From: Clostridia bacterium
Lineage (GTDB): Bacteria > Bacillota > Clostridia > Christensenellales > UBA3700
Assembly (NCBI GenBank): GCA_029060065.1
Contig: JAIDUT010000044.1
Span: forward strand, 1 to 49,792
Length of the DNA: 49,792 nt
Direction of reading: 5' to 3'
Within the stretch, counting starts at the first letter, position 1. Every line of letters starts with the position of its first letter. Made by a program: the position numbers and the translations under genes. Shown here in pieces: positions 8,592 through 24,004 of the stretch. The notes under the pieces are model-generated. The model saw only the letters and a list, made by a program, of their open reading frames with translations, did not search any database and had not been told where the DNA came from.

Positions 8592-8636
8592 TATAAAAAG
8601 AGGGGGTGGTGTATAACTATCCCCTTTTATGCTTTT
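8592..8636 (+). terminator. Intrinsic terminator-like hairpin
   Basis: AAAAGAGGGGGTGGT-GTATA-ACTATCCCCTTTT followed by T-rich tail. Confidence 0.6.
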
Positions 8637-8681
8637 TAGACGGTTGAATAAAGGTAACGAAATGTAGAGAGGAAAAGGAAA

Positions 8682-8891
8682 ATGGTAATTAGGAACTTTA
8701 TTGAAGTAACGAACTTTGACGACGGTGCGAACGTGTTAATACCTATTGATAAGATATTGGGTATTGTGTGTGATAGTGGCGGTAACGTATTTATTGAAAT
8801 GGGAACGGATAACAGAACTGTGTCGTCGGGTATTCTTGTAATTGAGAGTTACGACGAAATCAAAAATAAATTAAAAGCAAGTGAGGCGTAA
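8682..8891 (+). CDS. Small hypothetical protein (FlbD-like pattern)
   Basis: LIPIDKILGI...V.ESYDEIKNKL resembles small FlbD-like beta proteins; purine-rich RBS. Confidence 0.55.
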   Translation: MVIRNFIEVTNFDDGANVLIPIDKILGIVCDSGGNVFIEMGTDNRTVSSGILVIESYDEIKNKLKASEA

Positions 8892-8896
8892 ATCTA

Positions 8897-10501
8897 ATGT
8901 ACGAATTAAAAAGACATAAAAAAAGTGATAAAATCAAGTGGATATTTACGAGCATAACGTTTTTGCTTATTTCTGTAATGCTTGTTGGTTTTGGGTTGCA
9001 ACTCTTTGGCACAGGCAAATTAAAACCGTCCGAGTGGTTTACAAAATCTAATACCGAGGAAGTAATGTCGGGCAATGTTGAAAACGAAATGACGGCAACA
9101 TCTTCCGTTACTCCTCTTTCTATGGCGGTTTCGACAACTGTTGAGCCACGAGCAAACAATTATTCTTTACCTTCTTGGTGGAACGAAGGTAATGGTCCGG
9201 TAACAGGTTATTATTGTATATCTAGCAATGTTGGGAATTTGAACGATTTTGTTGGTTGCGTTGACCTTAGAAGCACTGAAGTATTTGGCAAGTCGGAGTT
9301 TGACGGATATGATAACGCTTTTATTTTTACTGCTCCTTCGTTTGACGGATATTCTGTTAAGAAATTGAGTGTTGATATTTATGGTTGTAGTTACGACCCC
9401 GGAAATGGTCGTTGCCCAAGTATGCCGTGGAATGCTCATAGCGACTATTGTGAATTTACTCCTAATTCTTTTTATGATACTCTTAAGTATTCATTTGAGT
9501 GTTCTTCGATAGGCAATGATAGATATACTTGCGGTGAATTTTACAACCCTTGGCGTGACGCTATTGGTATGTACATAGATTCTCTTCATTTTCTTTTTAA
9601 TATTGAATATGAGTTCGCAAAAGAACCTATTCCCCTTCCTGATAGTCCTGTAAAAGAAGGTTACACTTTCGTGGGTTGGTATTATGACGAGGCATTTACT
9701 AAACCTTATGATAATAAGCCTATTTTTGAGGATACCAACCTTTATGCAAAATTTGAAATTAACCGTTATAATGTCACTTTTAATTCAAATGATGGAAGTG
9801 ACGTTGCAAGTCAAGTTGTAGATTGGAATACGGTAGCAAACCTCACTACGCCAACACGTGACGGTTATGCTTTTAAGGGGTGGTATTTGTCAGACGGAAC
9901 GCAATATACAAACCAACCTATTAAAAGCAATACTACGCTTACGGCGCATTGGGAAAGGAATAGGTTTACAGTTACATTTAATACTGACGGCGGTAGTGAA
10001 ATTGAAAGTCAAACAGTTAGTTTGAACGCAAGCGTACAATTATCTACTACCACTAAAAAAGGCTTTAATTTTGTTGGTTGGTTTTTACAGGACGGAACGG
10101 AATATACAAATCAACCTATAACGGACGATATTGAACTTACGGCACGTTGGGAAGTGATTATATGTACTGTAACTTTCTATGTTGACGGTAAAGTTTATGA
10201 GGTTAAAGAAGTGGAATATGGCACTGCCCTGTCAGAGGTAGTTGAAGTTGCGTCTACAATGAACTTGCAAGTAATGTCACTGAGTTTAAGCGACGATACG
10301 CTTATTGGCGAAGTCGTTGACGAAATGAATACCGTAATAGGCGATTTAGATGTAACTGTCGCGATAATGAATGGTAAGGACAAAATTGTAAATACCGTTA
10401 AAAACAATAAATGGGCTGTTGTTGGCGGTCTTGTTGGTATTGTGGTATTGATTGTAGTCGTAATGGGTATTAGCAGTAGTGTTAAACGCAGAAAGCGTTA
10501 A
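8897..10501 (+). CDS. Membrane-anchored surface protein with InlB-B / Listeria-Bacteroides repeats (candidate adhesin or spike)
   Basis: N-terminal TM, repeats PVKEGYTFVGWY / PTRDGYAFKGWY / TTKKGFNFVGWF, C-terminal TM followed by KRRKR. Confidence 0.8.
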   Translation: MYELKRHKKSDKIKWIFTSITFLLISVMLVGFGLQLFGTGKLKPSEWFTKSNTEEVMSGNVENEMTATSSVTPLSMAVSTTVEPRANNYSLPSWWNEGNGPVTGYYCISSNVGNLNDFVGCVDLRSTEVFGKSEFDGYDNAFIFTAPSFDGYSVKKLSVDIYGCSYDPGNGRCPSMPWNAHSDYCEFTPNSFYDTLKYSFECSSIGNDRYTCGEFYNPWRDAIGMYIDSLHFLFNIEYEFAKEPIPLPDSPVKEGYTFVGWYYDEAFTKPYDNKPIFEDTNLYAKFEINRYNVTFNSNDGSDVASQVVDWNTVANLTTPTRDGYAFKGWYLSDGTQYTNQPIKSNTTLTAHWERNRFTVTFNTDGGSEIESQTVSLNASVQLSTTTKKGFNFVGWFLQDGTEYTNQPITDDIELTARWEVIICTVTFYVDGKVYEVKEVEYGTALSEVVEVASTMNLQVMSLSLSDDTLIGEVVDEMNTVIGDLDVTVAIMNGKDKIVNTVKNNKWAVVGGLVGIVVLIVVVMGISSSVKRRKR

Positions 10502-10513
10502 GCGAGGTGCATA

Positions 10514-11041
10514 ATGAAAACGTTGAGTAAAGTTATAACGTGGGTATTAGTTGCCATTGTTCTTTTAGGCGTCGTGGGTATGCTCTACTCTTTTATTGGA
10601 AACGGTCAGCGCAATTTTTACATTCGATACGGAAGCGAAGTAATGCCTACTTCCACAGACAATTTAGCCTTTGAAAAAGATGCTTGCAATGTTATTTATT
10701 GCGGTACTCTTACAGGGCAAAAAGTTGAGTATACGGTAACAATAGCATTGGACACGTCGAATATGTCTAATACTTCATTTAAGTTGAATGATAGTTCCGC
10801 TGACTTCAAATATGATTTGTACGGCTATGATTGTACCGCTTTATTTAACGTTGAAGTATTTGACGATTACTTTGTATTCTTCATTCCCAAAGATTTGACT
10901 TTGACTAAAATTTTGCAAAATAAGTATTCACAAGATACCATTACTGACGTAGTGGACGTTGATTTGTGGGAAAAGGACTATTTCGTATTGACTGTTACGG
11001 ATAAGGTCGAACGTAGTAGCACAGTAATTAGATTTCATTGA
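10514..11041 (+). CDS. Membrane protein with N-terminal TM (175 aa)
   Basis: GAGGTG RBS; hydrophobic residues 7-29. Confidence 0.75.
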   Translation: MKTLSKVITWVLVAIVLLGVVGMLYSFIGNGQRNFYIRYGSEVMPTSTDNLAFEKDACNVIYCGTLTGQKVEYTVTIALDTSNMSNTSFKLNDSSADFKYDLYGYDCTALFNVEVFDDYFVFFIPKDLTLTKILQNKYSQDTITDVVDVDLWEKDYFVLTVTDKVERSSTVIRFH

Positions 11042-11049
11042 GGTAACGT

Positions 11050-13038
11050 ATGCAAAAAGCAAGAAAACAATTATATATAAAACTGATTGTACTACTCCTT
11101 TTGGCGTTAGTAATTTTATCGTTGATTTGCAGTAATATATCAACTGCGTTTGCCTCGACGGACAACGTAATGCAATTTGATAGTACAAACGTATTGGACG
11201 ATTTGAAAGGTGGTACAATAGGCGGTAAATCATTTGATTTGGCTGACTATCCTTATGACGAAAAAGTTAAGCCACAAATAATTGGTTTAGTGGAATATTG
11301 TTATAGTTATTATGAAAGTCGTCAATCAAACTATGGTTTGTACGTTTACATATATAATCCACAAGGTCGTGATTTTGATACAAATACCGACCGCAATAAA
11401 ATTTCACTTTCTTATGGTGATAATGCAAGTTATAACAAATATGCTTTGAAATATCTTAACTGCTCTATTGCAAAAGGTACGGAAGGGCTTTTTTATAAAT
11501 TCAAAGTAAATCTATCGGAATTTGAACGCGCTTTGATTTTGAACGGTGTAAAACAAGCAGAACGTGTATATAAGATTGCAGGGCTTGAATTGTCTTTGAA
11601 AAATGAAGTAACTGACTATGCAGTAGCACAAACATATAAATATAGTGGATATTCAAAGGGTTATGCTCCGTTTGAGGGCGCGGAAAGCACGTTGTCGTGT
11701 GTTGTTGACGGTATAGATAAATATTTGCAATTAAACGTACATTCTACATATTGGCGTCCGTCGGGTACAAATGGCGATTCGTATTCACGTGATACTTTAC
11801 ATTCTGTTTATTTTTCAGTTCCAAACTATTTGATTGAGGAATACGGCGAAATGACGGCTGTACACGCTACTTGGTTAAATGCTCTTACCTCTCCTGTGTT
11901 TGTTACAGGTAATGAAACTGTATATAATGAGATAAACAAGTATTTGGGAAAATATGTTGACGGCGGTAAATTTCAACTTTCAAGTAGTGATAACTCTAAT
12001 ACTGATTTGAAATACGCTCTTATTGCCTCAAAGTTGATTGAGAGTGCAACTTGGAACAATGCTTCGTATGGCAGTTCTTATATAAGTTACAATGCAAATC
12101 GAAAGTATACAAGTTCGGACATTGACATTTATACACTTGCGTATTGCTTTCTTGCTGATAGCGTTTCGGGCGAACGTAATGCGGATAATTATGTTTTGCC
12201 CGCCGAAATGCTTGTTGGCGATAAGGAAAAAAATATAAGAGGTTGGTTTGAAACCTATACTGAAAAATACGGTGGCGAACTTGTGAATAATCGTTTTAGT
12301 AAAGATTTATTTGCGGAAGTTGCCGACAGTTTTACTGATATAACGATACGCAAAGACGATACATTTACATTGACTGACGAGGTGATCTCACAGAGTTTAT
12401 GGCAAAAGTTCATCGGTGGTGGCTATAACGTAACTGGTCAAAATCAGTATAACGTATCTGCTATTAAACGTGTAGATAATACCGATTTTAAGGCAACAAA
12501 AACGCAGACTTGCGACGGGCTATACATAAATGAAAGTGACTATGACGAATTTAAGAAGTTTTACGATAATGTTACTAGCAAAGATAAGCCCGAAACGGTT
12601 TACTTATTTAGATATTATCAATCGTCATATACGCATAATGAGGTTGCAACATATACAAGAGGAAAGGACGACGCTTTAATAAAAAGTTTTGCTTATAACT
12701 TTGTTGATACAAATGCGTACTTTATGCAAATGTGGGTACAACTTGACTTTGATATTATTGACGTGACTTTTACAAAGGATAACGTTGATACTGTTATTCC
12801 AGTAGTAATGTCGCCTGTCGATTTAGCGACTGACGGCGATACTACACTGTTTCCAAACAATGACAAAGACAATTGGTTGAAAATAGTTATTGCGGTTGTT
12901 TCGTTTATTCTATTGTGTGTAATTTTTGCGCCTATATTGCCGTATTTAATTCAATTTATTATAGGGCTTATAGCACTACCCTTTAAGTTGCTTGGTGCAG
13001 TATTTAAGGGCATAAGTAAAGCCGTAAGGCGAAAATAA
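11050..13038 (+). CDS. Large exported protein with signal peptide and C-terminal membrane anchor (662 aa)
   Basis: Signal peptide ending AFA-S; long C-terminal hydrophobic segment and basic tail VRRK. Confidence 0.8.
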   Translation: MQKARKQLYIKLIVLLLLALVILSLICSNISTAFASTDNVMQFDSTNVLDDLKGGTIGGKSFDLADYPYDEKVKPQIIGLVEYCYSYYESRQSNYGLYVYIYNPQGRDFDTNTDRNKISLSYGDNASYNKYALKYLNCSIAKGTEGLFYKFKVNLSEFERALILNGVKQAERVYKIAGLELSLKNEVTDYAVAQTYKYSGYSKGYAPFEGAESTLSCVVDGIDKYLQLNVHSTYWRPSGTNGDSYSRDTLHSVYFSVPNYLIEEYGEMTAVHATWLNALTSPVFVTGNETVYNEINKYLGKYVDGGKFQLSSSDNSNTDLKYALIASKLIESATWNNASYGSSYISYNANRKYTSSDIDIYTLAYCFLADSVSGERNADNYVLPAEMLVGDKEKNIRGWFETYTEKYGGELVNNRFSKDLFAEVADSFTDITIRKDDTFTLTDEVISQSLWQKFIGGGYNVTGQNQYNVSAIKRVDNTDFKATKTQTCDGLYINESDYDEFKKFYDNVTSKDKPETVYLFRYYQSSYTHNEVATYTRGKDDALIKSFAYNFVDTNAYFMQMWVQLDFDIIDVTFTKDNVDTVIPVVMSPVDLATDGDTTLFPNNDKDNWLKIVIAVVSFILLCVIFAPILPYLIQFIIGLIALPFKLLGAVFKGISKAVRRK

Positions 13039-13057
13039 AATAGTGAGGTAAATATAA

Positions 13058-13507
13058 ATGATTTGGAATAAACAAACGGGTAAAAAATATTATTCTGTTC
13101 AAGAAAAGATAAAGCATTATAGTAGTATGCTTGAAAGAAAAGATATTTCTTTAGATAAGAAGAAACTTGCTAAACAAAGGCTTATTGAATTGAAAGCAAT
13201 AGATAATTGTTTGTATGACGAGCCTACAATGATTATTACTGACGATAAATATTTTGGTAATCCTAGTTCTAAACTTCGTGCTTGCGTCGTTGTGGGCGTA
13301 GACAACAAACAACAGTTATTGGCTTGTCCTGTACGTAAAAGAACAATTAAAACTGTAATTCTTGAAAATGATACTGATAGACAAATGGACAGTACAGTTA
13401 AAATTCTTAAACGAAAAGACGTTTATGAAACAAAGAATATAAGTGGTTTGGCTTCTTTGACAAGTGGCGATAAGAAAAAGATAAAAGCAATTCACGGTAA
13501 AAAATAA
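13058..13507 (+). CDS. Basic protein, possible PemK/MazF-fold nuclease
   Basis: KLRACVVVG resembles the K.RP.VVV signature, followed by LLACPV; weak similarity by eye. Confidence 0.45.
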   Translation: MIWNKQTGKKYYSVQEKIKHYSSMLERKDISLDKKKLAKQRLIELKAIDNCLYDEPTMIITDDKYFGNPSSKLRACVVVGVDNKQQLLACPVRKRTIKTVILENDTDRQMDSTVKILKRKDVYETKNISGLASLTSGDKKKIKAIHGKK

Positions 13508-13665
13508 CAGCGACTTGTTGGGTCGCTGTCGGTGGACTTATTACCACTCACCGCTGTTGAGAAGCGGTGCCTACTGACTAATAGGTATTACCTTTCGTGG
13601 TCGGTAAGGCAATTATATATGATTATTGTTGTAAAAGTCAAACAAATTTACAAAAAAAAATAAAT

Positions 13666-13683
13666 TTGAAAGTGTACTTTCAA
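13666..13683. promoter_or_regulatory. Palindrome TTGAAAGT-NN-ACTTTCAA, copy 1 of 4
   Basis: Also at 18160-18177, 19472-19489 and 23379-23396. Confidence 0.7.
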
Positions 13684-13695
13684 AAAGGAAAGAGA

Positions 13696-13923
13696 ATGAC
13701 AATGAGAGATACGGCAAATTTGATTAAAACGCAAGAGCAATATGAGAGTTTGAAAACTCTATGCGCCAACGAATTGGGAACGACTACGGATAACGTGGAT
13801 ATAGGACTTATTGCGGATATAGGCGACGGCAAATATAAAATAAAGGTAGTGTACAAACATAGTTATTTATACGCAATGATATATGACGGAAAAAGAATAA
13901 CGGAATACGTGAGGTTGATATAG
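13696..13923 (+). CDS. Hypothetical protein (75 aa)
   Basis: Start reset to ATG 13696 after AAAGGAAAG. Confidence 0.65.
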   Translation: MTMRDTANLIKTQEQYESLKTLCANELGTTTDNVDIGLIADIGDGKYKIKVVYKHSYLYAMIYDGKRITEYVRLI

Positions 13924-13925
13924 TA

Positions 13926-14141
13926 ATGAAAGTAATTGATTACGTAGGCTGGATAGTTGGTTTTTTGATTGGCGTTGGTGTGCCTAGTTTGATTTTGTTT
14001 ATTGTCAATTATGCAAAAAAGCATAAAGGACAGCAACCGTCAAAGGGTGTTAAAACGCTAATAAGATTATTAAACGTAATAATTTTTGTAGTGGTGTTGG
14101 CGGAAATAGGTTACTTTATCTATACGGGGGTACGACTATGA
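13926..14141 (+). CDS. Small two-TM membrane protein (71 aa)
   Basis: Two hydrophobic helices separated by a basic loop; ATGA overlap with the ATPase gene. Confidence 0.7.
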   Translation: MKVIDYVGWIVGFLIGVGVPSLILFIVNYAKKHKGQQPSKGVKTLIRLLNVIIFVVVLAEIGYFIYTGVRL

Positions 14142-16315
14142 ACGCTAACGGAAACGGAAAAAGACGCTTTAATTATCGTCATATAATTTGTGTAATGATA
14201 ACGCTTGGTTGCTTGGCTTGCTCGTTGTTCCGCTATTCAAGTGCGCTTGGTAGAATCATTGAGGGCGGACGTGATTTTGGGCTTTCTATTGCCTACTATT
14301 TTTGTGAAATGTTTGGTATTGAGCATAATATCACGCCAACAGTCAATGACTTGCCAAAGATACCGTTTTTCGACTTTGCGCAATCTCCTGCGCCGTCAAC
14401 TCCTCTGCCCGATACTACTGACGGCTTTAAGGCGAATTGGACGGTATATTGGCAGTTGTGGGCTACGAAAGCAAACTTTATGGGATATTTGTCGTTCCTT
14501 GGCGACGTACTTTTTTATACTTTTTGTTGTACAATTACAATCATATTGCCACTTGTAGGCGGTTTGTATTTGTACTTAAAAAGATACTTCAAAAAGGTAA
14601 ATAATGATTACAACAAGGATAGCCGTCCGCTAAAAGTGTGCAAATGGCTTACGGCTCATACATACTCCCCCGTCAAAAGATTTGTTGTGGGGCTTTGGGC
14701 TTTTATAAAAGAGCATAAGCAGTACGTCATAGTGTGGGGCTTTATATGGGCGTTTAACTTCAATATAATTGCAATCGTGCTTGAATTTTTGGCATATTAC
14801 TTTTATTTTGTAGTGTCCTTTGACGTAGCGAGTATTTATCGGCAAGTATACAAACTATTTCTTGACCTGTCAGTACCGTTAAAGGCTATACCCGTATGGG
14901 CTTGGGTAATGATAGGGCTTGGGTGGTTTGACAACTTCCGCAAAAAAATAGCGTACGCAACTCTAAATCATTACGAAATGCGAAATCGTGGCTTTGTCAA
15001 CGCCCGTCCTATCGTATTTATGACGTGCGGTACAATGGGAAAGAAAAAGACAACGACGATAACGGATATGGGGCTTTCGCAAGAGGTAATGTTTCGTGAT
15101 AAAGCATTGGAAAAGTTGCTTGAAAACGACTTAAAATTTCCATACTTCCCTTGGATAAATTTGGAAAATGAGTTAAAACGTGCAATGCAATACCACGAAG
15201 TATATAATCTTGCTACGGTGCGAAAATTCGTCTATAAAAAGGCGAAAAGGTGGCAAAAGACTAAAACGCAAAGTAAACTCTTTGACTATGAATATGAACG
15301 CTATGGGTTTACTTACGACGATAAATTGAAAATTGTCAACGTGTGGGAAGTAATTGAGAATTACGCTCAACTATACTTTATCTATATAATACAGTCGTCT
15401 TTGATTATTTCTAATTATTCTATACGTGTGGACGCTGTTTTGAGTGATTTAGGCAACTTCCCTATGTGGAATAGCGACTTTTTTAAGCGTGATAGTAGGC
15501 TTATAGATAGTTTCTCGCGCCACTCTCATATCTTGGACTTTGACAGTCTACGGCTTGGGCGTAAAGTTGTTAAAAATAACATTAACGCAAACAACTTCGA
15601 GTTTGGCGTCGTAGTAATTACGGAAGTTGGCAAAGAGCGTGGCAATAATCTTGAATTACAAGAAAAGAAAAAGAAAGATATTGACACAAATCAAAAAAAT
15701 GACTTGTTCAATAGTTGGCTTAAAATGGTACGCCACTCCGCCACCGTAGACAACTTCCCTTTTGTAAGGGTAATCGTTGACGAGCAACGTCCTGAAAGTT
15801 GGGGTGCAGACGCTCGCGATTTATGCGAAATCGTACATATACGCGAAGGCGGAGATACACGACTTGCAATGCCTTTCTTCTCACTTGCTGAATTGCTTTA
15901 CGACTGGATACTTGGCAAGTTTTCAGGGCTATATTATCAATATAGATATGTGCGTAGTGATAAGACCGTGCCTATGTATGCTCTCAAAGCGTTTACGGCG
16001 AAAATAGACCACTACTACACGCGAATTTATAATCGTTTTGGATACTGCCGTTTGCAGGTGCAAACCGAAAGCGGAACGCAAGACGGACAACGTGACGAAA
16101 ACAAATACTATTTAATGCCTAAAAAGATTTATAGTAAGCGTTTTTCCACTGACTGTTATTCGGACTATTTTACAGAAAAAGCGTTACGCTCTCCCGTCGG
16201 TATCGACGATTTGAGGGAATACGAAACCGAAAAAGCAACGTTTAGCGAACTTCGCTTACAAAATAGTTACTTTGTCAATGACCTATTAAATGGCTTGACT
16301 GAAAATAAAAAATAA
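14138..16315 (+). CDS. Multi-TM Zot/pI-like (FtsK-HerA clade) ATPase
   Basis: N-terminal TM segments; variant Walker A GTMGKKKTT; Walker B-like VVVITE; LKMVRH...RVIVDEQRPESWGADARDL matches the RH / Q / R pattern of pI-like ATPases. Confidence 0.7.
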   Translation: MNANGNGKRRFNYRHIICVMITLGCLACSLFRYSSALGRIIEGGRDFGLSIAYYFCEMFGIEHNITPTVNDLPKIPFFDFAQSPAPSTPLPDTTDGFKANWTVYWQLWATKANFMGYLSFLGDVLFYTFCCTITIILPLVGGLYLYLKRYFKKVNNDYNKDSRPLKVCKWLTAHTYSPVKRFVVGLWAFIKEHKQYVIVWGFIWAFNFNIIAIVLEFLAYYFYFVVSFDVASIYRQVYKLFLDLSVPLKAIPVWAWVMIGLGWFDNFRKKIAYATLNHYEMRNRGFVNARPIVFMTCGTMGKKKTTTITDMGLSQEVMFRDKALEKLLENDLKFPYFPWINLENELKRAMQYHEVYNLATVRKFVYKKAKRWQKTKTQSKLFDYEYERYGFTYDDKLKIVNVWEVIENYAQLYFIYIIQSSLIISNYSIRVDAVLSDLGNFPMWNSDFFKRDSRLIDSFSRHSHILDFDSLRLGRKVVKNNINANNFEFGVVVITEVGKERGNNLELQEKKKKDIDTNQKNDLFNSWLKMVRHSATVDNFPFVRVIVDEQRPESWGADARDLCEIVHIREGGDTRLAMPFFSLAELLYDWILGKFSGLYYQYRYVRSDKTVPMYALKAFTAKIDHYYTRIYNRFGYCRLQVQTESGTQDGQRDENKYYLMPKKIYSKRFSTDCYSDYFTEKALRSPVGIDDLREYETEKATFSELRLQNSYFVNDLLNGLTENKK

Positions 16316-16337
16316 AATATGTGAGGTAAAAAAAAAT

Positions 16338-16613
16338 ATGTTTAATTTAGCGGACAAAATTAAGTACTACAAAAGAAGATTTGTACTTGACGACGATAAT
16401 AAGCGTGGTTACGCTAGGGGTTTTGTCAATGGTGCTAGTGTAAATCATACGAAAGCGCATAATATTGACGATAAGAAAGAATTATCGTTGTCATATCGTG
16501 AATTAAAAAAAGCGAAAAATGCTGACGATAGGCGTATTATACTTGCTGATATTTGCTATTTGAAAGGCTGTTTGCAGGGTTATAATGAAAAAATGAAAAA
16601 CGATAAAAAATAG
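16338..16613 (+). CDS. Small basic hypothetical protein (91 aa)
   Basis: GAGG RBS; GYARGF and YLKG motifs. Confidence 0.65.
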   Translation: MFNLADKIKYYKRRFVLDDDNKRGYARGFVNGASVNHTKAHNIDDKKELSLSYRELKKAKNADDRRIILADICYLKGCLQGYNEKMKNDKK

Positions 16614-16869
16614 AAGGTGTTATCCTTTTAGATTGCGGAGGCAAAAGAGAAAATGCAATACATAATAAAGCAAGTGAACGGTTTTCCGTAGCACAATGCA
16701 AAGACGAAAATGCAACTAAAAAGGTGCTATCCTTTTGAGTTGCTTTCGGCAGGGCAAAAGTAATACGGAAAATGCGAACTGTCAAGCACATCGTGAAATA
16801 AAAGCGTAGCGATTATGTCGCGAAAGGTGCTTTACAGTACGCAAGTAAACGACGATAGAGGTAATAACT

Positions 16870-17841
16870 ATGGAATACGCAAACTTGATACCTATTGAGA
16901 ATATGACGGACTACCCGTTTCCATTCTTTGACGAGCCTATCCCACCTACGGAAACTTATTACAAGGTTTATAACGACGGTGGGCATTACATAGCAACACG
17001 TATTTATCGCAGTCAAGCGAAAGCAAAATCGCATAATAATACGCAACGTGAGGACATAGACATACTCTTTGATAGCCTTTACAATGCCACTTTACAAGAC
17101 GGATTAAAAGCCGACGAACAAGTGGCATACATAAAGGCAGGTATACTCAAACTATTCCCCCATTGCTATGATTTAGACGGCTACGTTGCGGACAAACTTG
17201 AACGCAAACGGCATAATCTTTATGCCCGTAAAAAGCGTTTTCGTCGCAAGGCTAATCTCAATAAGTGGAATTACTTCGTTACGTTTACGTATGACGACGG
17301 CAAACAAGACGAGAATACGTTTAGGAAGAAGTTGCGGTGTTGCTTATCTCATTTGCATACGCGTCGTGGGTGGCGTTATATGGGCGTATTTGAAAGAGCG
17401 CCGGAAACGGGACGTTTGCACTTTCACGGACTGTTATACGTACCCGACGGCGAAATGATAGGCAACATATCAGAACGAACTGATTATAGTACCGCGCAAA
17501 GCAAAATGCAAACTACACACCCAAACGATTTTTTTGAAAAGGCTTTCGGGCGCAACGATTTTGAGGAATTAAACGAAATGGAACTACGACACGGCCAAAC
17601 GCTAAATTACATTTTGAAGTACATAGGAAAGACAGGCGAACGCATTGTTTATAGTAGAGGAATACCGACAGAAGTATGCGTAAAGGTCAAGGCTGACGAT
17701 ATAATAACGGATATGCAAGATTACGGAACAAAATACATACTTTTTGACGACGTGATAACTTGGGAACGCGACGTAATGAATTTCAAGCGAAAGCAAGTAT
17801 CAATATTTGACCTCTTATGTAATCCCCAACGGGTAGCGTAA
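16870..17841 (+). CDS. HUH-superfamily rolling-circle replication initiator
   Basis: Motif I FVTFTY, motif II LHFHGL, motif III YILKY (two tyrosines). Confidence 0.88.
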   Translation: MEYANLIPIENMTDYPFPFFDEPIPPTETYYKVYNDGGHYIATRIYRSQAKAKSHNNTQREDIDILFDSLYNATLQDGLKADEQVAYIKAGILKLFPHCYDLDGYVADKLERKRHNLYARKKRFRRKANLNKWNYFVTFTYDDGKQDENTFRKKLRCCLSHLHTRRGWRYMGVFERAPETGRLHFHGLLYVPDGEMIGNISERTDYSTAQSKMQTTHPNDFFEKAFGRNDFEELNEMELRHGQTLNYILKYIGKTGERIVYSRGIPTEVCVKVKADDIITDMQDYGTKYILFDDVITWERDVMNFKRKQVSIFDLLCNPQRVA

Positions 17842-17960
17842 GACGGTATTTAACTCAATATAAAACTGTCTAACACCTATGGTCGGCATAAGGTGTATTT
17901 TGCGTTTCTTTGAAAACTAAAATAAAGCACGTTTACGGGCTTTTAATCGCTTTCACTTTC

Positions 17961-18025
17961 GCATACAAAAAATAAAGGCGACATTTTGCAAAGCGATTTA
18001 GCGCAAAAGTCGCCTTTTTGTGTGC
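17961..18025 (+). other. Candidate single-strand origin hairpin, copy 1
   Basis: Long imperfect stem with loop AAAGCGATTTAGCG; same loop motif at 21220-21233. Confidence 0.5.
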
Positions 18026-18053
18026 TGAAAGCGGTCAGTCGGTCGGTAAAAAC

Positions 18054-18110
18054 GCGACACCTTGTACCGTCCGCCGTCAGGCGGACGCTCGTAGTAGTAC
18101 AAGGTATCGC
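18054..18110 (+). repeat. 57-bp branched hairpin, candidate double-strand origin, copy 1
   Basis: 54/57 identical to 21301-21357; directly downstream of rep; contains TAGTAGTAC. Confidence 0.7.
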
Positions 18111-18179
18111 CTAATAGCCCCTATGGTAAATTTACCATAGAATTAAGCAAAGAATTGTCTTGAAAGTGCACTTTCAAAA

Positions 18180-18476
18180 CTAGGCTTTGCAAGGCTCTAA
18201 AAGTCTATCTATCGTAACGCTATGATACTTGGCAAGGGCTATCAAATATCGTAGGGACGGAACAACCTCGCCACGCTCCCACTGACTGACATTTTTTTGA
18301 TTAACTCCCAAAGCGTCGGCTACGTCCTTTTGACTTTGCTTGCGGTCTTGTCGTAAGCAAATAAGATTGAAAGCAAGGTCAATTCTAGGCTTTGTGTTTT
18401 CGTCGGCTTGCTCTCTTTGTTCCATTAGACTAAAAAGCGATATTTTTGCCGTTGTTGTGTAAGTAGGAAATAACAT
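18180..18476 (-). CDS. XRE-family HTH regulator 1
   Basis: LRQDRKQSQKDVADALGVNQKNVSQWERGEVVPS; start uncertain, ATG 18476 coincides with the predicted +1. Confidence 0.85.
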   Translation of the reverse strand: MLFPTYTTTAKISLFSLMEQREQADENTKPRIDLAFNLICLRQDRKQSQKDVADALGVNQKNVSQWERGEVVPSLRYLIALAKYHSVTIDRLLEPCKA

Positions 18477-18482
18477 ACTTTT

Positions 18483-18511
18483 ATTATATGGTAAACTTAC
18501 CATATTGTCAA
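18483..18511 (-). promoter_or_regulatory. Consensus sigma-A promoter with palindromic operator in the spacer
   Basis: TTGACA (18511-18506), 17 bp, TATAAT (18488-18483); operator TATGGTAAACTTACCATA at 18487-18504. Confidence 0.8.
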
Positions 18512-18524
18512 GGAAAAAATTACT

Positions 18525-19427
18525 ATGAAAAACAACGAAATAAAAGACAAATTGAATATACTTGAAAACAAACTTAATTTGCTAATAAATCAAACGCCCA
18601 TAGAACGCCCTGCCCCTTATACGCTCTATGAGTGGTTGGAATTATGGTATGTAACTTGTAACGCTCCAACGCTTTCAAAAAAGTGGCATAAAGTTTTGAG
18701 ATATAATATTGACCGCATAAAATCATTACTTCCTGATAAACTCTTGAACGAATACACCGCAATAGAACTTTTGCAAGCCGTCTATGCCGTGCCTTTGAGT
18801 TATACTCGTTCAGCCTGCTATAACTTATTGAACGCCGTATATAAGCAAGCCGTACGGCTCGGCTACGTGCTTATCAATCCATTGGATGCAACAGAAAAAG
18901 TAACGCACGTTAGACAAGTAGGGCGAGCGTTAACTCTTGAAGAGCAACGGCAATTCTTAAAAGTATTGGACGGAAACGCCCGAAAGGCTCTATATTTATT
19001 CTATCTTTTAAGTGGTTGCCGTTGCTCGGAGTTAATAGCACTCCGTTGGACTGACATTGACGAAAACGCAGGTCTTATACACGTATACGGAACGAAAACG
19101 CCCCACGCTAATAGATATATACCACTATTCCCTCAAATTCGGGCATTGTTAGACACAATTCCCCATATCAATGAAAGAGTATTCCCCCTTACTGAAAACG
19201 CCGTTAAAAGCCATTTTCAACGCTTAAAACATAAATACGGCTTGAATTTCCGTTTGCACGATTTACGGCATACCTTTGCTACACGTTGCATAGAAAGTGG
19301 CATAAGCATTTTTACGCTGTCAAAATGGTTAGGACATAGCAACATAAACACAACCGCAAGTATTTACGCCCATTTGCTGACTGACTTTGAACGGCAAGAG
19401 ATTGCACGATTTGACCCAAAGATATGA
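18525..19427 (+). CDS. Tyrosine recombinase / integrase
   Basis: SGCRCSE (R), GTKT (K), HDLRHTFA (H-x-x-R), WLGH, IYAH (Y). Confidence 0.93.
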   Translation: MKNNEIKDKLNILENKLNLLINQTPIERPAPYTLYEWLELWYVTCNAPTLSKKWHKVLRYNIDRIKSLLPDKLLNEYTAIELLQAVYAVPLSYTRSACYNLLNAVYKQAVRLGYVLINPLDATEKVTHVRQVGRALTLEEQRQFLKVLDGNARKALYLFYLLSGCRCSELIALRWTDIDENAGLIHVYGTKTPHANRYIPLFPQIRALLDTIPHINERVFPLTENAVKSHFQRLKHKYGLNFRLHDLRHTFATRCIESGISIFTLSKWLGHSNINTTASIYAHLLTDFERQEIARFDPKI

Positions 19428-19493
19428 ATACCACGAAAGGACGATAGCAACCGCTACCGCCCTTTTGATTTTTGAAAGTGTACTTTCAAAAAA

Positions 19494-19721
19494 TTACTCT
19501 GTTTCGCTATACTCCCCCACGCAAAGGACTTCGTTTGCGTCAAGGTCTAGCACGGCACAAAGTTTTGCAAAAGTATCTAATGCGGGCATTGCTCTCCCCG
19601 AAAGATATTGGGCAATTGTCGAAGATTTAATATTAACTCTTCGGCAAATTTCCGCTTGTGTCATTCCACTATTTTTGATAGCATCTTTTAATTTCTCTCT
19701 AATTGCATTTAACGTAATCAT
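19494..19721 (-). CDS. XRE-family HTH regulator 2
   Basis: SGMTQAEICRRVNIKSSTIAQYLSGRAMP; ATG 19721 after GGGAGG. Confidence 0.88.
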   Translation of the reverse strand: MITLNAIREKLKDAIKNSGMTQAEICRRVNIKSSTIAQYLSGRAMPALDTFAKLCAVLDLDANEVLCVGEYSETE

Positions 19722-19749
19722 AAAAAATATACCTCCCAAACAAATTATA

Positions 19750-19823
19750 CTAGGAATTGCCTAGCAAATGCTTGACAACTAGGCAATGCCTAGTATATTA
19801 TTAAGTTGCTAGGCAATGCCTAG
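19750..19823. promoter_or_regulatory. Three palindromic operators (CTAGGCA-N-TGCCTAG) over divergent promoters
   Basis: Copies at 19750-19764 (one mismatch), 19779-19793 and 19809-19823; TTGACA at 19772. Confidence 0.8.
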
Positions 19824-19849
19824 TAATAAAAATAAAGGACGGACGAACT

Positions 19850-20164
19850 ATGAAACAAAAACAAAGCAACACGCCCCGACAAGAGGGGCAACACACCGAC
19901 AGCCAAAAAAGTCAATTCTTGATTGACAATTTGGATAAGTTTTGCAAGGACAACAATTTGGTTGTTATTTCCGTAGAAAACGACTATGGCAAGATTATTG
20001 CGCAAAGAGATACAAAGGACAAAGACAAAATCACAAAGATTGTAGGCTTTGCCGTATCTGTTGACGAGTGCGAAGAGATTGACGAGAACGAGGACTACGA
20101 GGACGAAGAGAACGAGCAAGACGAAAAGATTACGATAGATAGGTTTGTGAGGTGGTTAAAATGA
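19850..20164 (+). CDS. Hypothetical protein with acidic C-terminal tract
   Basis: AAGGA RBS; first gene after the operator array. Confidence 0.65.
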   Translation: MKQKQSNTPRQEGQHTDSQKSQFLIDNLDKFCKDNNLVVISVENDYGKIIAQRDTKDKDKITKIVGFAVSVDECEEIDENEDYEDEENEQDEKITIDRFVRWLK

Positions 20165-20997
20165 CAAATTGGGGTGATTGGAAAATAACTGACGAACAAG
20201 CACAAGCAATTCACAACGGAGAAAAAACCGCTCGCGATAAATTCTACTTTGATAATTTAGATAAAATTCGGGCTATGGCTCATACTCATTGCTCTCGTTC
20301 TTCTTCTTGTCGTGGTTGGTTTGAAGATATGGTTAACGGTGTTTACGTTGATTTAACGATTTTTGAAAGTGGCATAAATCAGCCTGTGAATGGTGTATGG
20401 CGGTTGCATAAATTCATTTACGCAAGTTTTAAGGCTTGCCCACACGGTGGGTTGGCTTATCTTTACGAAAATAATCGCAAATTATTAAGTGGTAGGAAAG
20501 AATATCGCGCGCCTACCGATATTCTTTCGTTTGATTCTCCTATAAGTTATTCAAGTACTTTACATAACCACGACGGCGGACATAGTACGACGATTGCGGA
20601 TATTATACCTGCTCCCCATTCGCTGAGTGAAAAAAGATATGACATTATAAAGCAAATTGTTTGCCGTCGTCTTTCGCCTCGTGCCTCTGCTTATGTTGGA
20701 CTTTTAATTGATGGTTATGCTACTAAGGAAATAAAAGCGTTGACAGTTGACAAACGAACAACTTTAAGTGCTGTAAAAAAAGAACTTATAACTCATTGTA
20801 AAACTATATTGGACGATTTAACCGCTATTGGCTTAAATGTAGAATATTACTATAAAATAGATCCAAGTGAAAAAGTAGAAAAACATTATAAACAAACACC
20901 CGAAGAGCGCGAAAAGCGTCGATTATGGGCGCGAAATTGGCGACTAATACAAAAAACAAAGAAAAACGCAACGCCCACGCTCCCACCTGTGGCGTGA
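20161..20997 (+). CDS. Divergent sigma-70-like protein
   Basis: Region-2-like (AIHNGEKTARDKFYFDNLDKIRAMA...FEDMVNGVY), region-3-like SFDSPI...TIADII, region-4-like LSPRASAYVGLLIDGYATKEI. Confidence 0.55.
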   Translation: MTNWGDWKITDEQAQAIHNGEKTARDKFYFDNLDKIRAMAHTHCSRSSSCRGWFEDMVNGVYVDLTIFESGINQPVNGVWRLHKFIYASFKACPHGGLAYLYENNRKLLSGRKEYRAPTDILSFDSPISYSSTLHNHDGGHSTTIADIIPAPHSLSEKRYDIIKQIVCRRLSPRASAYVGLLIDGYATKEIKALTVDKRTTLSAVKKELITHCKTILDDLTAIGLNVEYYYKIDPSEKVEKHYKQTPEEREKRRLWARNWRLIQKTKKNATPTLPPVA

Positions 20998-21186
20998 GGC
21001 ACGGACATTGACAACGGCAAACTATCTTCTTTAAGGCTAGGGCGTGAAAACGCCCCAACCTAATCCGCACAAGACCAGAGCAAAAGCCACAGCATTTTGC
21101 GACGTGCGGAACGCGAAAAGGCAAAGGCTATTACGTCTTTGCCTTTGAGATTACCTATTGAAAAGAAAGCAAGGCACTTGGAGAAC

Positions 21187-21262
21187 GCACAAAAAAACAA
21201 GGTGGCGCAACGGAGTCAAAAAGCGGTTTAGCGTTGACCCGTTGCCCCTTGTTTTGGCGTGT
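21187..21262 (+). other. Candidate single-strand origin hairpin, copy 2
   Basis: Stem with loop AAAGCGGTTTAGCG followed by T, giving TAGCGT. Confidence 0.5.
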
Positions 21263-21300
21263 CGCTTCGGTTAGTCGGTCGGTTACTCAGTCGGCGAGTG

Positions 21301-21357
21301 GCGATACCTTGTACCGTCCGCCGTCAGGCGGACGCTTGTAGTAGTACAAGGTGTCGC
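21301..21357 (+). repeat. 57-bp branched hairpin, candidate double-strand origin, copy 2
   Basis: Direct repeat of 18054-18110. Confidence 0.7.
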
Positions 21358-21417
21358 GTAATAGCCCCACTAATCAAATTTGATAGAAAAACCGCTTGAA
21401 ATTAAGTAATATTTTGA

Positions 21418-22098
21418 TTAACGAATAATGAGTTTTGGCTTTAAGCACGCTGAAACGTCTTGCAAGTCTTTGTCGGTCATTATTATTACTTTTAAGCCTA
21501 GTTTGTCGTAAATTTTTTGAGTATATTCTTTGCTCTTCAAATATTTGGGGTTAGAGAGTTCGTTATACTCAATATAAAGTTCGTAATCAGGCAAGTAGAA
21601 GTCGGGATGTAATTCTTTTGTTTCCCCCGTCTTTTCGTCTAGGTAATATACAGGTTCTTCGTATTTTACGCGTATTTTGTTGTTGTATAGCCAACTGCAA
21701 ATAATCGCCTCTGCTCTGCTACGGACTTTTCTACCGTCGTCGCATCTATATATTAGGTTGCCGTATTCGTCAAGTATTTCCGTTTCCGTGCAATTAGTGA
21801 TACGAATATCAACTGAACGGTCTTTGTATTTTGCATAACATTTTTTGCAAAAGTGAAGTCCGTTAGAATTTTCGCCACAAATTATACAAGTCAATTTGGG
21901 CGTAGTGTCGCTTTCTTGTTGCTTATTAGTATCAATAGTTTGTATGGGCTTGTTTCCGCAAGACGGACAAACTTCGTCGGTTTTACGCCATTTATCGCAA
22001 ACAGGACATTTCATTACTTTGTTTTCGTCTTTAAGTTTGAAACAACTTTTGCATAAAGGAAGATAACCACTTGGTTTACCGCATATTTGACAATTCAT
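21418..22098 (-). CDS. Multi-Zn-finger protein with C-terminal PD-(D/E)XK-like nuclease domain
   Basis: Six CxxC motifs; VRSRAEAII...YE...PDFYLP...YIEY; ATG 22098 after GGAGG. Confidence 0.7.
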   Translation of the reverse strand: MNCQICGKPSGYLPLCKSCFKLKDENKVMKCPVCDKWRKTDEVCPSCGNKPIQTIDTNKQQESDTTPKLTCIICGENSNGLHFCKKCYAKYKDRSVDIRITNCTETEILDEYGNLIYRCDDGRKVRSRAEAIICSWLYNNKIRVKYEEPVYYLDEKTGETKELHPDFYLPDYELYIEYNELSNPKYLKSKEYTQKIYDKLGLKVIIMTDKDLQDVSACLKPKLIIR

Positions 22099-22165
22099 AT
22101 AAATACCTCCAAAATAAAAGAGAGATACGACATAATGAACGCATCTCTCTCCAAAGTGCATTCTC

Positions 22166-22268
22166 TATGTTGCTATACAAAATTATCTAATGACAAGATA
22201 AAATGAGAATACAGTTTTGGCGGTATTCATTGTCATTAGATATATATTATCTTTTGTATAGCAACATA
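22166..22268. other. Long inverted repeat (17-bp + 13-bp + 6-bp stems)
   Basis: TATGTTGCTATACAAAA/TTTTGTATAGCAACATA, TATCTAATGACAA/TTGTCATTAGATA, GAATAC/GTATTC. Confidence 0.8.
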
Positions 22269-22322
22269 AGTATAAAGCAATTTTAATTATTTTGTAAAGT
22301 AAATTAAAGGAAATAAACGACT

Positions 22323-23372
22323 ATGAAAAAGAAAGGAACGAAAGATTTAACGTTAACGCAAAGGCGCGAATTGGAAACGCTATTGAAAGCAGGTCTGCAT
22401 AAAAAGCAAATCGCCAAACAATTAGGCGTATGCCTTGCAACCGTGTACAACGAAATCAATCGCGGAAAATGTACTCAAAAGGTCATTAGGTACGTCGATT
22501 GGTTTGGCGATAAGCATTATAAGGAAGTAACGGCATATAGTGCGGATTTAGCCGAATATAATTATCGACTAAATCAATCGTCACACGGTGCGCCACTTAA
22601 AATTGGCAACGATTTTGAATTAGTACGCGAAATTGAAAATCGTGTTGTCAATGATAAGATAAGCCCGTGCGCCGCGCTAGGCGAAATCAAGCGCAAAGGA
22701 ATATGCCGTACAACGATAAGCAAAACTACGCTCTATCGTTATATACGTATGGGCGATATATTCACGCGCATAACAATGCAAGATGTGAAATTAAAGCAAA
22801 AACATTATCAAAAAGCGACGGTAAAACGTCCGCCGAGAGGTACAAGCATTGAAAAACGCCCTGCCGAGATTGCCGAGCGTAACACATTCGGGCATTGGGA
22901 AATGGATTGTGTTATAGGCAAGCAAAGTACAAAGCAAACTATACTTGCTTTTACCGAGCGGTTGACACGTTATGAAATCGTATTCAAAATGCCCGACCAT
23001 AAAGCGACGACAGTAGTCCGCTACGTTAACAAACTTGAAAAGCGTTACGGCAAGCAATTCCGTAAACTATTCAAAAGTATTACGGTTGACAACGGCGTGG
23101 AATTTAGCGACTATAAGGGGCTTGAAAAGTCTATTTATGGCGGTAAACGTACTAGCGTATACTATTGCCACCCATATACCTCTTGCGAACGTGGAAGTAA
23201 TGAGCGATTAAACCGTGAGATACGCCGACTAATACCAAAAGGCATTGATTTATCTACTATAAGCGAAAAGCGCATACAAGCGGTTGAAACGTGGATAAAT
23301 GATTATCCGCGTGAAATCTTTGGGTACGCTACAAGTGCCGAAATGTTTAACGCGCAATTACAAGCAATTTAA
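22323..23372 (+). CDS. IS30-family DDE transposase
   Basis: N-terminal HTH; GHWEMDCV, SITVDNGVEF, YCHPYTSCERGSNERLNREIRR, INDYPR. Confidence 0.95.
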   Translation: MKKKGTKDLTLTQRRELETLLKAGLHKKQIAKQLGVCLATVYNEINRGKCTQKVIRYVDWFGDKHYKEVTAYSADLAEYNYRLNQSSHGAPLKIGNDFELVREIENRVVNDKISPCAALGEIKRKGICRTTISKTTLYRYIRMGDIFTRITMQDVKLKQKHYQKATVKRPPRGTSIEKRPAEIAERNTFGHWEMDCVIGKQSTKQTILAFTERLTRYEIVFKMPDHKATTVVRYVNKLEKRYGKQFRKLFKSITVDNGVEFSDYKGLEKSIYGGKRTSVYYCHPYTSCERGSNERLNREIRRLIPKGIDLSTISEKRIQAVETWINDYPREIFGYATSAEMFNAQLQAI

Positions 23373-23591
23373 CAATTATTGAAAGTACACTTTCAAAAAA
23401 CTAATCAAGCCGTCGTAGTACGGCTATTTGTCGTGCAACAAACTTCCCCGTTTGCGCCGTTTTTCTACCACTTGCAAGTGGTAGAAAAAGTTAAAGCCCA
23501 CCGAATTACTACTTTCGACAGGCTTTTTTATCGTGTAACAAACTTTTTTTGAATTTAAGAAAAAAATTCTAAAAAAATGCTTGACTTTTCA

Positions 23592-23606
23592 TATAATTTA
23601 ATAATA
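23592..23606 (+). repeat. Right direct repeat (target duplication)
   Basis: Identical to 6339-6353. Confidence 0.85.
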
Positions 23607-23713
23607 TTATTATACTATTTTACCAATTCTAACCGCTAATATAAATCGAATATTGACTAATACCGCCCAGTCGACTATAATGATAATACTAATAAACAAT
23701 ATTTGGAGAAATT

Positions 23714-24004
23714 ATGGGAATAGTAGTTCATATTTATTACACGGGCAAAGACGGAAGCGCAAGAAAATTTGCTGAAGAGATGATTTCAAGCGGAATCGTA
23801 GACGCCGTAAGGGCTAAAGAAGGAAATCTGAAATATGATTATTACTTCCCTATAGACGATAAGGAAACAGTTTTGCTTATCGATAAATGGACTAATCAAC
23901 AAGCATTGGATATGCACCATAAATCTGATCTTATGCCAAGAATTGCCGATTTAAGAACTAAATATAAACTTAAAATGAGTGTTGAAAAATTTGAATATGT
24001 TTAA
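23714..24004 (+). CDS. Antibiotic biosynthesis monooxygenase (ABM) family protein
   Basis: VRAKEGNLKYDY...LLIDKWTNQQALDMHH. Confidence 0.85.
   Translation: MGIVVHIYYTGKDGSARKFAEEMISSGIVDAVRAKEGNLKYDYYFPIDDKETVLLIDKWTNQQALDMHHKSDLMPRIADLRTKYKLKMSVEKFEYV

Follow-up and report, generated by a model that had tools for sequence, protein, structure and literature searches.

The 49,792-nucleotide (nt) stretch of DNA analyzed here (hereafter the window) is one entire contig of a 1.57-Mb metagenome-assembled genome of a Clostridia bacterium, which comprises 110 contigs, and it contains a putative prophage with a gene for an HUH-type rolling-circle initiator (Rep). An origin-like hairpin that follows this gene is present twice, and between the two copies lies a 3247-bp module that has no Rep gene. 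When the copies are read against the hairpins of related elements they are, judged by their sequence, reciprocal chimeras of two hairpins. Our preferred explanation, to which we give a little better than even credence, is that the module is a Rep-less circular hitchhiker with a cognate origin, that it recombined with the prophage origin-to-origin by means of the prophage's Rep, and that its release takes one round of replication that begins at the first origin and terminates at the second.

Two bulged hairpins flank a Rep-less module

The first-pass annotation of this DNA had described 57-bp direct repeats identical at 54 of 57 positions. Both were recovered on the forward strand (18054-18110 and 21301-21357, differing at repeat positions 5, 37, and 53), and the similarity extends to 68 nt, giving copy 1 at 18054-18121 and copy 2 at 21301-21368, with 64 of 68 positions identical (94%), a fourth difference at repeat position 58, and a start-to-start distance of 3247. 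The two form one direct-repeat family. A 30-nt core pattern with up to three mismatches has two matches in the window where 0.00 are expected (100 shuffles), and in the 1.57-Mb genome as a whole the hairpin core occurs only in these two copies.

Folded as single-stranded DNA (ssDNA), both copies take the form that had been annotated: a 14-bp outer stem is continuous with an 8-bp inner stem (CGTCCGCC/GGCGGACG) and a GTCA loop, with fold energies of -21.3 and -22.5 kcal/mol (z -7.1 and -7.7) that none of 200 shuffles matched. After the inner stem, the 3′ strand of each copy carries a one-sided 9-nt bulge. The annotation had also likened the site to circovirus and nanovirus origins, in which a conserved TAGTATTAC-like nonamer lies in the loop, and this analogy, a superficial one, finds no support: the loop is GTCA, and TAGTAGTAC extends from the bulge into the beginning of the 3′ outer arm, outside any loop. 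Nor is TAGTAGTAC kept in relatives, where the bulge has other sequences such as CTCGTATAGTA, CTCGTTTTAGT, and CTTGTATTAT.

The flanking motifs and second palindrome noted earlier were found at both copies. TAATAGCCCC directly follows each hairpin, completing the repeat at copy 1, and is followed in turn by a palindrome (TATGGTAAATTTACCATA at 18122-18139, ATCAAATTTGAT after copy 2). Upstream, the motif CGGT(C/T)AGTCGGTCGGT (repeat family D5) is located at 18032-18047 and 21268-21283. At copy 1 it coincides with the prophage's own set of GTCN-type short repeats (CGGTCAGTCGGTCGGT, 18032-18047, forward strand), which is kept at the same place in relatives and is a candidate Rep-binding site. Copy 2 is preceded by the module's own GTCGGT repeats (CGGTTAGTCGGTCGGT and a second, degenerate copy, 21268-21295, forward strand), which stand 11 nt farther from the hairpin than at copy 1, in surroundings of unrelated sequence. 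The module would thus carry a whole origin, because it has its own GTCGGT repeats and a matching inner stem; a Rep-dependent replicon needs these, whereas an attachment site would not.

Two other identities for the repeat were ruled out. It is not a transcription terminator of rep, as there is no T-run on the 3′ side and a terminator would not require the degree of conservation seen in the bulge and arms, and it is not the target-site duplication of a transposon, as 68 nt is too long and the module is without a transposase. An IS30-type gene nearby is not the module's transposase, because it lies in the backbone of the host element and is kept in module-less relatives.

Signatures of a reciprocal exchange

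The aligned relatives read C, C, and G at repeat positions 5, 37, and 53, and mostly G at position 58. Copy 1 reads C, C, A, C at these positions, its 5′ part being of the relatives' (prophage) type and its 3′ part of the module type, and copy 2 reads T, T, G, G, with a 5′ part of the module type and a 3′ part of the prophage type. In the outer stem, position 5 is paired with position 53, which leaves a C·A mismatch in copy 1 and a T·G wobble in copy 2. Among 34 aligned hairpins this pair (alignment columns 5/62) is C-G in 30 and T-A in two, and the mismatch and the wobble are each found once, in the window's own copies. Swapping halves between the copies yields one perfect C-G hairpin of the relatives' type and one perfect T-A hairpin; the half-swap restores both stems, and it therefore appears that the C-G hairpin of the element underwent recombination with a circle that brought a T-A hairpin of its own. 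The T-A type occurs naturally in two related loci (L030 and L056), there with CTT in the bulge.

These states confine the exchange to the stretch from position 37 to position 53, which covers the bulge and the first part of the 3′ arm. The crossover interval is 18091-18105 in copy 1, where it begins right after the CTC of a CTYGT motif, and 21338-21352 in copy 2 (both on the forward strand), and the window's own partners are identical over these 15 nt. We infer that CTY^GT, with the cut at the caret, is the nick site of Rep.

The position of the crossover would be meaningless if host homologous recombination, or template switching by a polymerase, had acted between the near-identical 68-nt origins. 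Short homologies can be enough for exchange by RecA or by copy choice, and polymerases stall at hairpins, so the 64 of 68 identical positions speak for such a process. The exchange nevertheless falls in the 15-nt identical block (38-52) and not in the longer block of 31 nt (6-36), and with the further junctions described below we regard this explanation as improbable.

The same states bear on the possibility that a free module circle was mis-threaded into the prophage contig at the common hairpin during assembly. Repeats can mislead assemblers, and the source is a metagenome-assembled genome of many contigs. However, a k-mer graph would switch within positions 6-36 and give C, T, A, C and T, C, G, G, whereas the states seen need a switch inside the 15-nt block. 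A source-like run also holds 99% of the sampled words of 16900-22300, and we find an assembly artefact hardly credible.

The hairpin accompanies a two-tyrosine Rep

The Rep gene (16870-17841, forward strand) encodes a 323-aa HUH endonuclease that matches PF23343 (40.9 bits against a cut-off of 27.8), and its motifs FVTFTYDD, H184-F-H186, and Y247-x-x-K-Y251, the last with two tyrosines, are invariant in 10 homologues. It is not a CRESS-type Rep, as this protein is of the two-tyrosine type and no SF3 helicase domain was found; apart from a weak Phage_GPA match, PF23343 is its only domain. The nearest annotated relatives are microvirus VP4 proteins at ~29% identity, and the 1997 homologues at E ≤ 0.001 are mostly unnamed proteins from gut Clostridia assemblies; one Rep (P0001) is 96% identical. 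A plasmid collection gave no match to Rep. In the A protein of phiX174, two tyrosines serve initiation and termination (PMC5714925).

Sixty-one related Rep loci were fetched, and 43 contain a hairpin of the same build, once each and always 130-350 nt past the Rep stop codon; two copies are seen only in the window. This build consists of conserved outer arms, a GC-rich inner stem of variable sequence, and a 3′-side bulge that starts with CTYGT, followed by GTAAT. The 34-hairpin alignment contains compensatory changes in 13 of the 19 predicted pairs, and CTYGT, in its one-sided bulge, is invariant. The inner stems differ even between relatives at 77% identity, yet the module's inner stem is identical to that of the window prophage. 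A pattern of the two arms detected 40 metagenome loci (some from the same assemblies as the genome loci), 32 of them with Rep, transposase (rve), or 725-aa protein (p725) homologues, in the order 725-aa gene, Rep, hairpin, (HNH), transposase. The hairpin is also present in elements without any tyrosine recombinase. Because it directly follows the Rep gene in relatives and its stems covary, the hairpin behaves as an origin-type, Rep-linked functional site of an HUH Rep element, presumably as its plus-strand origin.

Relatives with a single origin and no module, which the annotation had named as a check on its proposal, do exist. In 16 of 16 loci compared by blastn (Rep 63-78% identical), a single hairpin follows the homologue of the 16.6-18.1 kb region, none matches 18140-21300, and the homologue of window 22316-23591 starts 70-90 nt past the hairpin or after an HNH-like gene.

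The module in its integrated and apparently excised forms

Blastn comparison with loci L011-L024 gives homology limits of ~6354 on the left and 23591-23602 on the right, and assembled contigs in the public runs X2-X5 have loose ends at 23591-23602. A 17-nt direct repeat (ATATAATTTAATAATAT) at 6337-6353 and 23584-23600 marks both ends, and in a congeneric genome (G018) window position 6343 is joined directly to 24001. These limits, the end repeat, and the joint therefore place the two hairpins within an integrated rolling-circle element of 17.2 kb, the putative prophage (6354-23600, forward strand; 17,247 bp with the module included). Without the module the element measures exactly 14.0 kb, in agreement with the annotated estimate of about 14 kb. 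The 17-nt end repeat is long for an IS30-type target duplication. As G018 joins 6343 to 24001, the ABM monooxygenase gene at 23714-24004 is also extra in the window strain.

Joints were analyzed in the assembled contigs, not the reads, of four public runs; among the data sets listed, none of RNA holds this sequence. In X2, another sample from the source's study, a contig of 3274 nt is circularly permuted, its ends overlapping by 30 nt: it reads from 19590 downward as far as 18091, continues from 21337, and stops at 19561, with the joint 21337->18091 in its interior and an ambiguity of 15 nt. The contig represents a closed cycle of ~3244 nt or a tandem, and its hairpin has the states T, T / A, C that were predicted. 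It has 0 mismatches to the module, whereas the backbone contig to the left has 120 in 2782 nt (4.3%); module and backbone are therefore uncoupled in X2, with no common history there. Of the sub-genomic circles that had been proposed, the module circle would thus be represented by this closed contig, and the module apparently can leave as a circle. In X3-X5, parts of the window are without contig cover, which is no sign that these parts are missing from the samples.

Independent insertions into other hairpins

Junctions of the same kind were found at other loci, in elements that combine a Rep gene with a relative of the module's tyrosine integrase (Int) gene and, in L121, also with a relative of orf281. 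At L121:2040-11500, a head-to-tail dimer of a hairpin-int-orf281-Rep unit (period 4677, 4703 nt at 99.85% identity) is situated between chromosomal genes for a HAD hydrolase, a nitroreductase, and a DUF4368 protein. The middle hairpin is complete, and the outer two are chimeric with a hairpin of a different class, the arms being complementary across the junctions. On the Rep-sense strand the exchange lies directly after CTC in the element and CTT in the target, with only GT common to both. Hairpins of this second class are intact in 5 of 401 genomes of the order, at six places, and their inner stems covary; they have different arms, the same architecture, and a bulge of CTTGTCT(A/T)T (loci L125-L129 in G449, G108, G321, G061, and G025), and no window-type Rep was found within 1.5 kb in these five loci.

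L049 holds a single Rep-Int element of 4.3 kb in a third hairpin class, with 14-nt arms that are perfectly complementary across the junctions, and the exchange again follows CTY, with GTA common to the partners. The window, L121, and L049 thus record three events at the same phosphodiester region. In L121 and L049 this point was used with a homology of only 2-3 nt, which argues against homologous recombination in the window as well; for those two events, whose partners are without homology, it is therefore excluded. The elements in L121 and L049, both of which lie within hairpins, have Int proteins ~49% identical to that of the module.

Half-chimeric or decayed hairpins, with the 5′ part of one class and a 3′ arm that is of another class or lost, were observed inside tRNA-integrated Rep-Int elements (L052:10999-11075, L054:10999-11060, and L049:12853-12920), and may be traces of older origin-by-origin events. 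L050, whose target is ambiguous, and L052/L054, whose junction is probably inherited, were not counted as clean events. The degenerate 3′ arm of L054 and the missing bulge of L011 were dropped as uninformative on the nick site.

Module genes and the case for the integrase

The module body (18122-21300, forward strand) has the order xre1-int-xre2-orf104-orf281, and all its reading frames are open. The annotated xre-int-xre-sigma content stands for the first three genes: xre1 (18180-18503, reverse strand; HTH_3, 4.5e-11), int (18525-19427, forward; PF00589, 2.1e-24), and xre2 (19494-19739, reverse; PHROG matches only). They are followed by orf104 (19850-20164, forward) and orf281 (20152-20997, forward), and the latter has no Pfam match; the sigma (sigma-70-like) label comes from weak protein-atlas leads. 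The catalytic positions of Int (R, HxxR, H, and Y) are all present, and its best solved relatives are IntI4 and Xer proteins.

Homologues of Int (32-49% identity) and orf281 (28-40%) occur together in another group of Rep elements, without the IS30 gene and with the order hairpin-int-(xre)-orf281-Rep-hairpin, and the window module has the same order minus Rep. One of them, L063, is a contig of 6.0 kb whose two termini overlap by 83 nt. A search of 74 genomes of the family returned no close DNA copy of the module; the most similar stretch, in the xre2 region, matches at 79% over 247 nt. Scans of viral contigs with the inner stem, Rep, Int, and orf281 gave no match, and the arm pattern matched one unrelated viral contig. 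Int homologues at 60-72% identity are mostly on contigs of 3-6 kb, a hint only.

The likeness to this other group allows for an origin in situ, in which an L121-type Rep-Int-orf281 element inserted, lost its Rep, and had its hairpin homogenized, so that the module is a decaying remnant and not mobile. Its gene order is that of the L121/L063 type without Rep, hairpin-(xre)-int-xre-orf281-[Rep]-hairpin, just as this scenario would have it. Against it are the open frames, the perfect match of the closed X2 contig to the module beside a 4.3% divergent backbone, and the clean split of the T-A pair between the copies, which homogenization would have erased. A remnant is accordingly quite improbable.

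A less probable but serious alternative to catalysis by Rep is that the module's own Int made the exchange and Rep was uninvolved, the module hairpin being attP, the prophage hairpin attB, and the two repeats attL and attR, with excision perhaps on folded ssDNA, as for integron attC sites or for CTX phage with XerCD. Int looks intact, it lies ~400 nt from copy 1 in the usual position of an attP, and related integrases (27-49% identity) also stand beside the junction in L121, L049, and L050; reciprocal chimeric repeats and a closed circle are, moreover, to be expected from any conservative site-specific recombinase. The sites that related integrases use are nevertheless different. Sister elements with 32-48% identical Int proteins are integrated at tRNA-Lys, tRNA-Ser, and tRNA-Arg genes, not at the hairpin, which lies elsewhere in them: L054 has a 104-nt repeat at tRNA-Lys with the hairpin ~4.7 kb away, and in L051 an intact hairpin is on one side of int and tRNA-Ser on the other, with L052 and L070 similar. 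No tRNA-like attachment site was found in the module by a short-word BLAST against the rest of the genome, in which the only matches were an 18-bp palindrome in the backbone and chance 15-19-mers, and the window contains no tRNA.

The geometry of the crossover also tells against Int. It falls in a one-sided bulge without a spacer on the opposite strand, and not between inverted core sites 6-8 bp apart, and the partners in L121 and L049 share only the 2-3 nt given above, which a double-strand tyrosine-recombinase reaction tolerates poorly; the 15 identical nt of the window's own partners are compatible with either enzyme. A folded-strand reaction of the integron kind is disfavored in that Int does not belong to the integron integrases (TIGR02249 gives 62 bits, with a cut-off of 265), and the 3′ end of the hairpin has no GTTRRRY and no attC R/L box layout. 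Finally, catalysis by Int leaves the copied GTCGGT repeats and the exact inner stem unexplained.

Both the module and the backbone contain a perfect 18-bp palindrome (TTGAAAGTRYACTTTCAA), with four matches against 0.00 expected: 13666-13683 and 23379-23396 in the backbone, 18160-18177 and 19472-19489 in the module. Relatives that lack the module have kept the copy that lies in the backbone near 13.65 kb (blastn rows 13633-13689). This palindrome is a candidate operator common to the module and the backbone, and its presence in both suggests regulatory cross-talk between the module and the host element. A second palindrome, TATGGTAAA(T/C)TTACCATA, stands on both sides of xre1 (18122-18139 and 18487-18504; D6/I7), and the pair are candidate operators for xre1 and the integrase promoter. 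Between xre2 and orf104, a 17-nt palindromic unit (CTAGGCAATGCCTAGTA) is repeated three times at 29-30 nt spacing (19750-19825; D9/I13/I20), probably as an operator array.

A proposed route of exchange and release

We infer that Rep rather than Int is the catalyst, and the following route would then account for the two copies as recombinant junctions of two origin hairpins, one of the ~14-kb element and one of a 3247-bp circle. The circular partner would have carried regulators and a tyrosine integrase, no Rep, and its own GTCGGT repeats, inner stem, bulge, and TAATAGCCCC. The bulge would be exposed when the palindrome is extruded or in single-stranded intermediates and be cut after CTY, and the two-tyrosine HUH Rep would cut both origins and join them crosswise, giving the cointegrate in the window. 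Initiation at copy 1 and termination at copy 2 would produce a 3247-nt circle whose hairpin regains the T-A pair. Once the element itself is circular, the complementary round would produce the module-less 14.0-kb genome, whose hairpin regains the C-G pair. The module would accordingly be a Rep-dependent hitchhiker or satellite of the prophage, or an exchangeable regulatory cassette of it.

Several observations weigh against this route. The polarity of position 37 is taken from relatives, and the strict bounds of the crossover are positions 5 to 53; CTT is also found with C-G stems in more distant lineages; the candidate nick site is deduced from recombination junctions; and gene conversion that followed the insertion could also have made the inner stems identical. 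A tyrosine integrase gene stands beside the junction in the window module and in L121, L049, and L050, and because Int accompanies every hairpin insertion found it is not separable from the events by presence or absence. The X2 cycle derives from contigs, and its joint would look no different if the module were present as a head-to-tail tandem; in X4, from another study, backbone and module records (18 and 19) overlap in the hairpin, which is compatible with integrated and separate forms alike. The other half of the annotated prediction, the reciprocal module-less ("skip 3247") joint, was not among the contigs listed for the four runs, which is not evidence of its absence. The viral label of the host element is weakened in that family scans recognized no capsid, coat, or Zot protein in it.

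A wider reading, which we put forward tentatively and at somewhat less than even confidence, is that in this widespread rolling-circle family of gut Clostridia the origin also acts as the attachment site and the HUH Rep also as the integrase. Insertion would take place after CTY into any origin-like bulged hairpin, including that of a resident prophage. A Rep-less 3.2-kb satellite would have evolved in this setting, copying the helper's origin and operators, living in the helper's origin, and being released or lost by ordinary initiation and termination; a bacterial element of the ssDNA type would then have a natural bipartite-like life cycle with two components.

Other genes and repeats of the host element

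Upstream of Rep are ~10 kb of genes for membrane or secreted proteins without family assignment. The gene that always adjoins Rep (14138-16315) encodes a 725-aa protein with three N-terminal membrane segments and an invariant, P-loop-like G-x-x-G-K-K-K-T motif. No family was found for this protein in Pfam, PHROGs, NCBIfam, or the protein atlas, by a profile against PDB sequences, or by a per-member Pfam scan; the atlas gave only one lead, with a score of 0.88, to a cluster with Zot in 10% of its members.

Downstream of copy 2, an IS30-family DDE transposase/integrase is encoded at 22323-23372 (forward strand; NF033563, 219.9 bits against a cut-off of 80), with homologues in 35 loci that start ~70-90 nt past the single hairpin in relatives. 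Between the hairpin and this gene, outside the module, is an HNH or double-zinc-ribbon-like accessory gene (21418-22161, reverse strand; phrog_9084, 1.1e-6, and phrog_559). It is kept in L021, L026, L027, L086, L093, L096, L098, L100, L116, and L119 and missing from others, a patchy distribution as expected of a free-standing homing endonuclease.

In many relatives the region just 5′ of Rep (window 16621-16857) is duplicated several kb upstream within the same element (L015:1800-1921/9848-9980; L018:2992-3231/9741-9980; also L024, L028, L030, L032, L033, L037, and L053), perhaps as a second copy of a promoter or other regulatory sequence. Toward the contig's left end, positions 325-375 and 696-746 form a direct repeat of 51 nt with 92% identity and a spacing of 371 nt.

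Significance and comparison with known systems

A literature search returned no publication that describes this family of elements or a module without Rep in a prophage origin; the supplementary tables of PMC6813254 may already list related Clostridia elements. The components and the chemistry, namely origin-by-origin HUH recombination, are known. In that search we did not find a description of a naturally occurring module that lacks Rep and is stored in the origin of its helper, or of Rep elements that as a family insert into heterologous origin-like hairpins at the nick.

If Rep does make the exchange, the module would correspond in nature to the f1 constructs engineered with two origins, and in bacteria to the viral satellites that lack Rep. 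The helper would keep a cargo module in its own origin, and replication that starts at the first origin and stops at the second would be enough to release it. For the rolling-circle elements of abundant, uncultured gut Clostridia there would be an added route for swapping regulatory and lysogeny modules, and a means of entering the chromosome without a dedicated integrase. The natural junctions in the window, L121, and L049 place the candidate nick to within 1-3 nt, and the CTYGT hairpin could serve as a practical marker for the origins and hidden cointegrates of ~2000 functionally unnamed Rep homologues.

Among Rep-less circles, the satellites and components of geminiviruses and nanoviruses carry the origin stem-loop of a helper and depend on the helper's Rep. 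Those systems are eukaryotic and of the CRESS type, with a nonamer in the loop and a helicase domain in Rep, and neither feature is present here. HUH transposons of the IS200/IS605 and IS91 types use hairpin-guided single-strand cutting without target duplication, and insert 3′ of a short motif that resembles their own cleavage site. They have distinct left and right ends and a TnpA, whereas here a whole replicon would insert via a single origin and leave a complete hairpin at both junctions. Integron cassettes are likewise bracketed by imperfect hybrid palindromes, are excised as circles, and recombine on a folded strand without homology; in the present case, however, the integrase is not IntI, there are no R/L boxes or GTTRRRY, and the hairpin is present also where there is no tyrosine recombinase.

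Relaxases nick ssDNA just 3′ of a hairpin, and the geometry is alike here. HUH Mob proteins or relaxases form and resolve cointegrates at nick regions common to two origins, without RecA (PMC5714925). Origin-by-origin recombination of this kind (TrwC at oriT, Pre at RSA, and the pBMB0228 cointegrate) would follow the same cut-and-rejoin logic as proposed for the window. Those cases concern plasmid transfer origins and MOB relaxases, whereas here the protein is a Rep of the replication type, encoded by a prophage-like element, one of the partners has no HUH gene, and the targets can be heterologous hairpins, as in L121 and L049.

The DNA of CTX phage is made by a rolling-circle-like process between tandem copies (PMC4439123). 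The CTX/RS1/TLC arrays of Vibrio cholerae likewise yield DNA from an integrated state between tandem origins, and their satellites carry helper-acting regulators (PMC4439123). RS1 and TLC have their own initiators and integrate at dif via host XerCD, beside the helper and not inside its origin, whereas the module here is Rep-less and the host element has an IS30-type integrase. Filamentous phages (Tubulavirales: Inoviridae/Plectroviridae) offer a further parallel in that the host element combines a Rep of the G2P/ORF2 family (PF23343) with an IS30-family transposase. In Vespertiliovirus a transposase takes the place of the p2 equivalent, according to the ICTV profile (PMC8295915), whereas the window element has both a Rep and a transposase.

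Another parallel is engineered: two f1 plus-origins around a segment, together with helper pII, give a small ssDNA circle (PMC4403547). In such two-origin microphage or Ff-nano plasmids, as would hold for the module, the segment is copied origin-to-origin by an HUH initiator of the helper and needs no initiator gene of its own. The f1 arrangement is an engineered construct in E. coli with pII, whereas the arrangement here is natural and lies inside the helper's own origin, with an unrelated two-tyrosine Rep (PF23343), a bulged hairpin, and origins that would be hybrid from past recombination.

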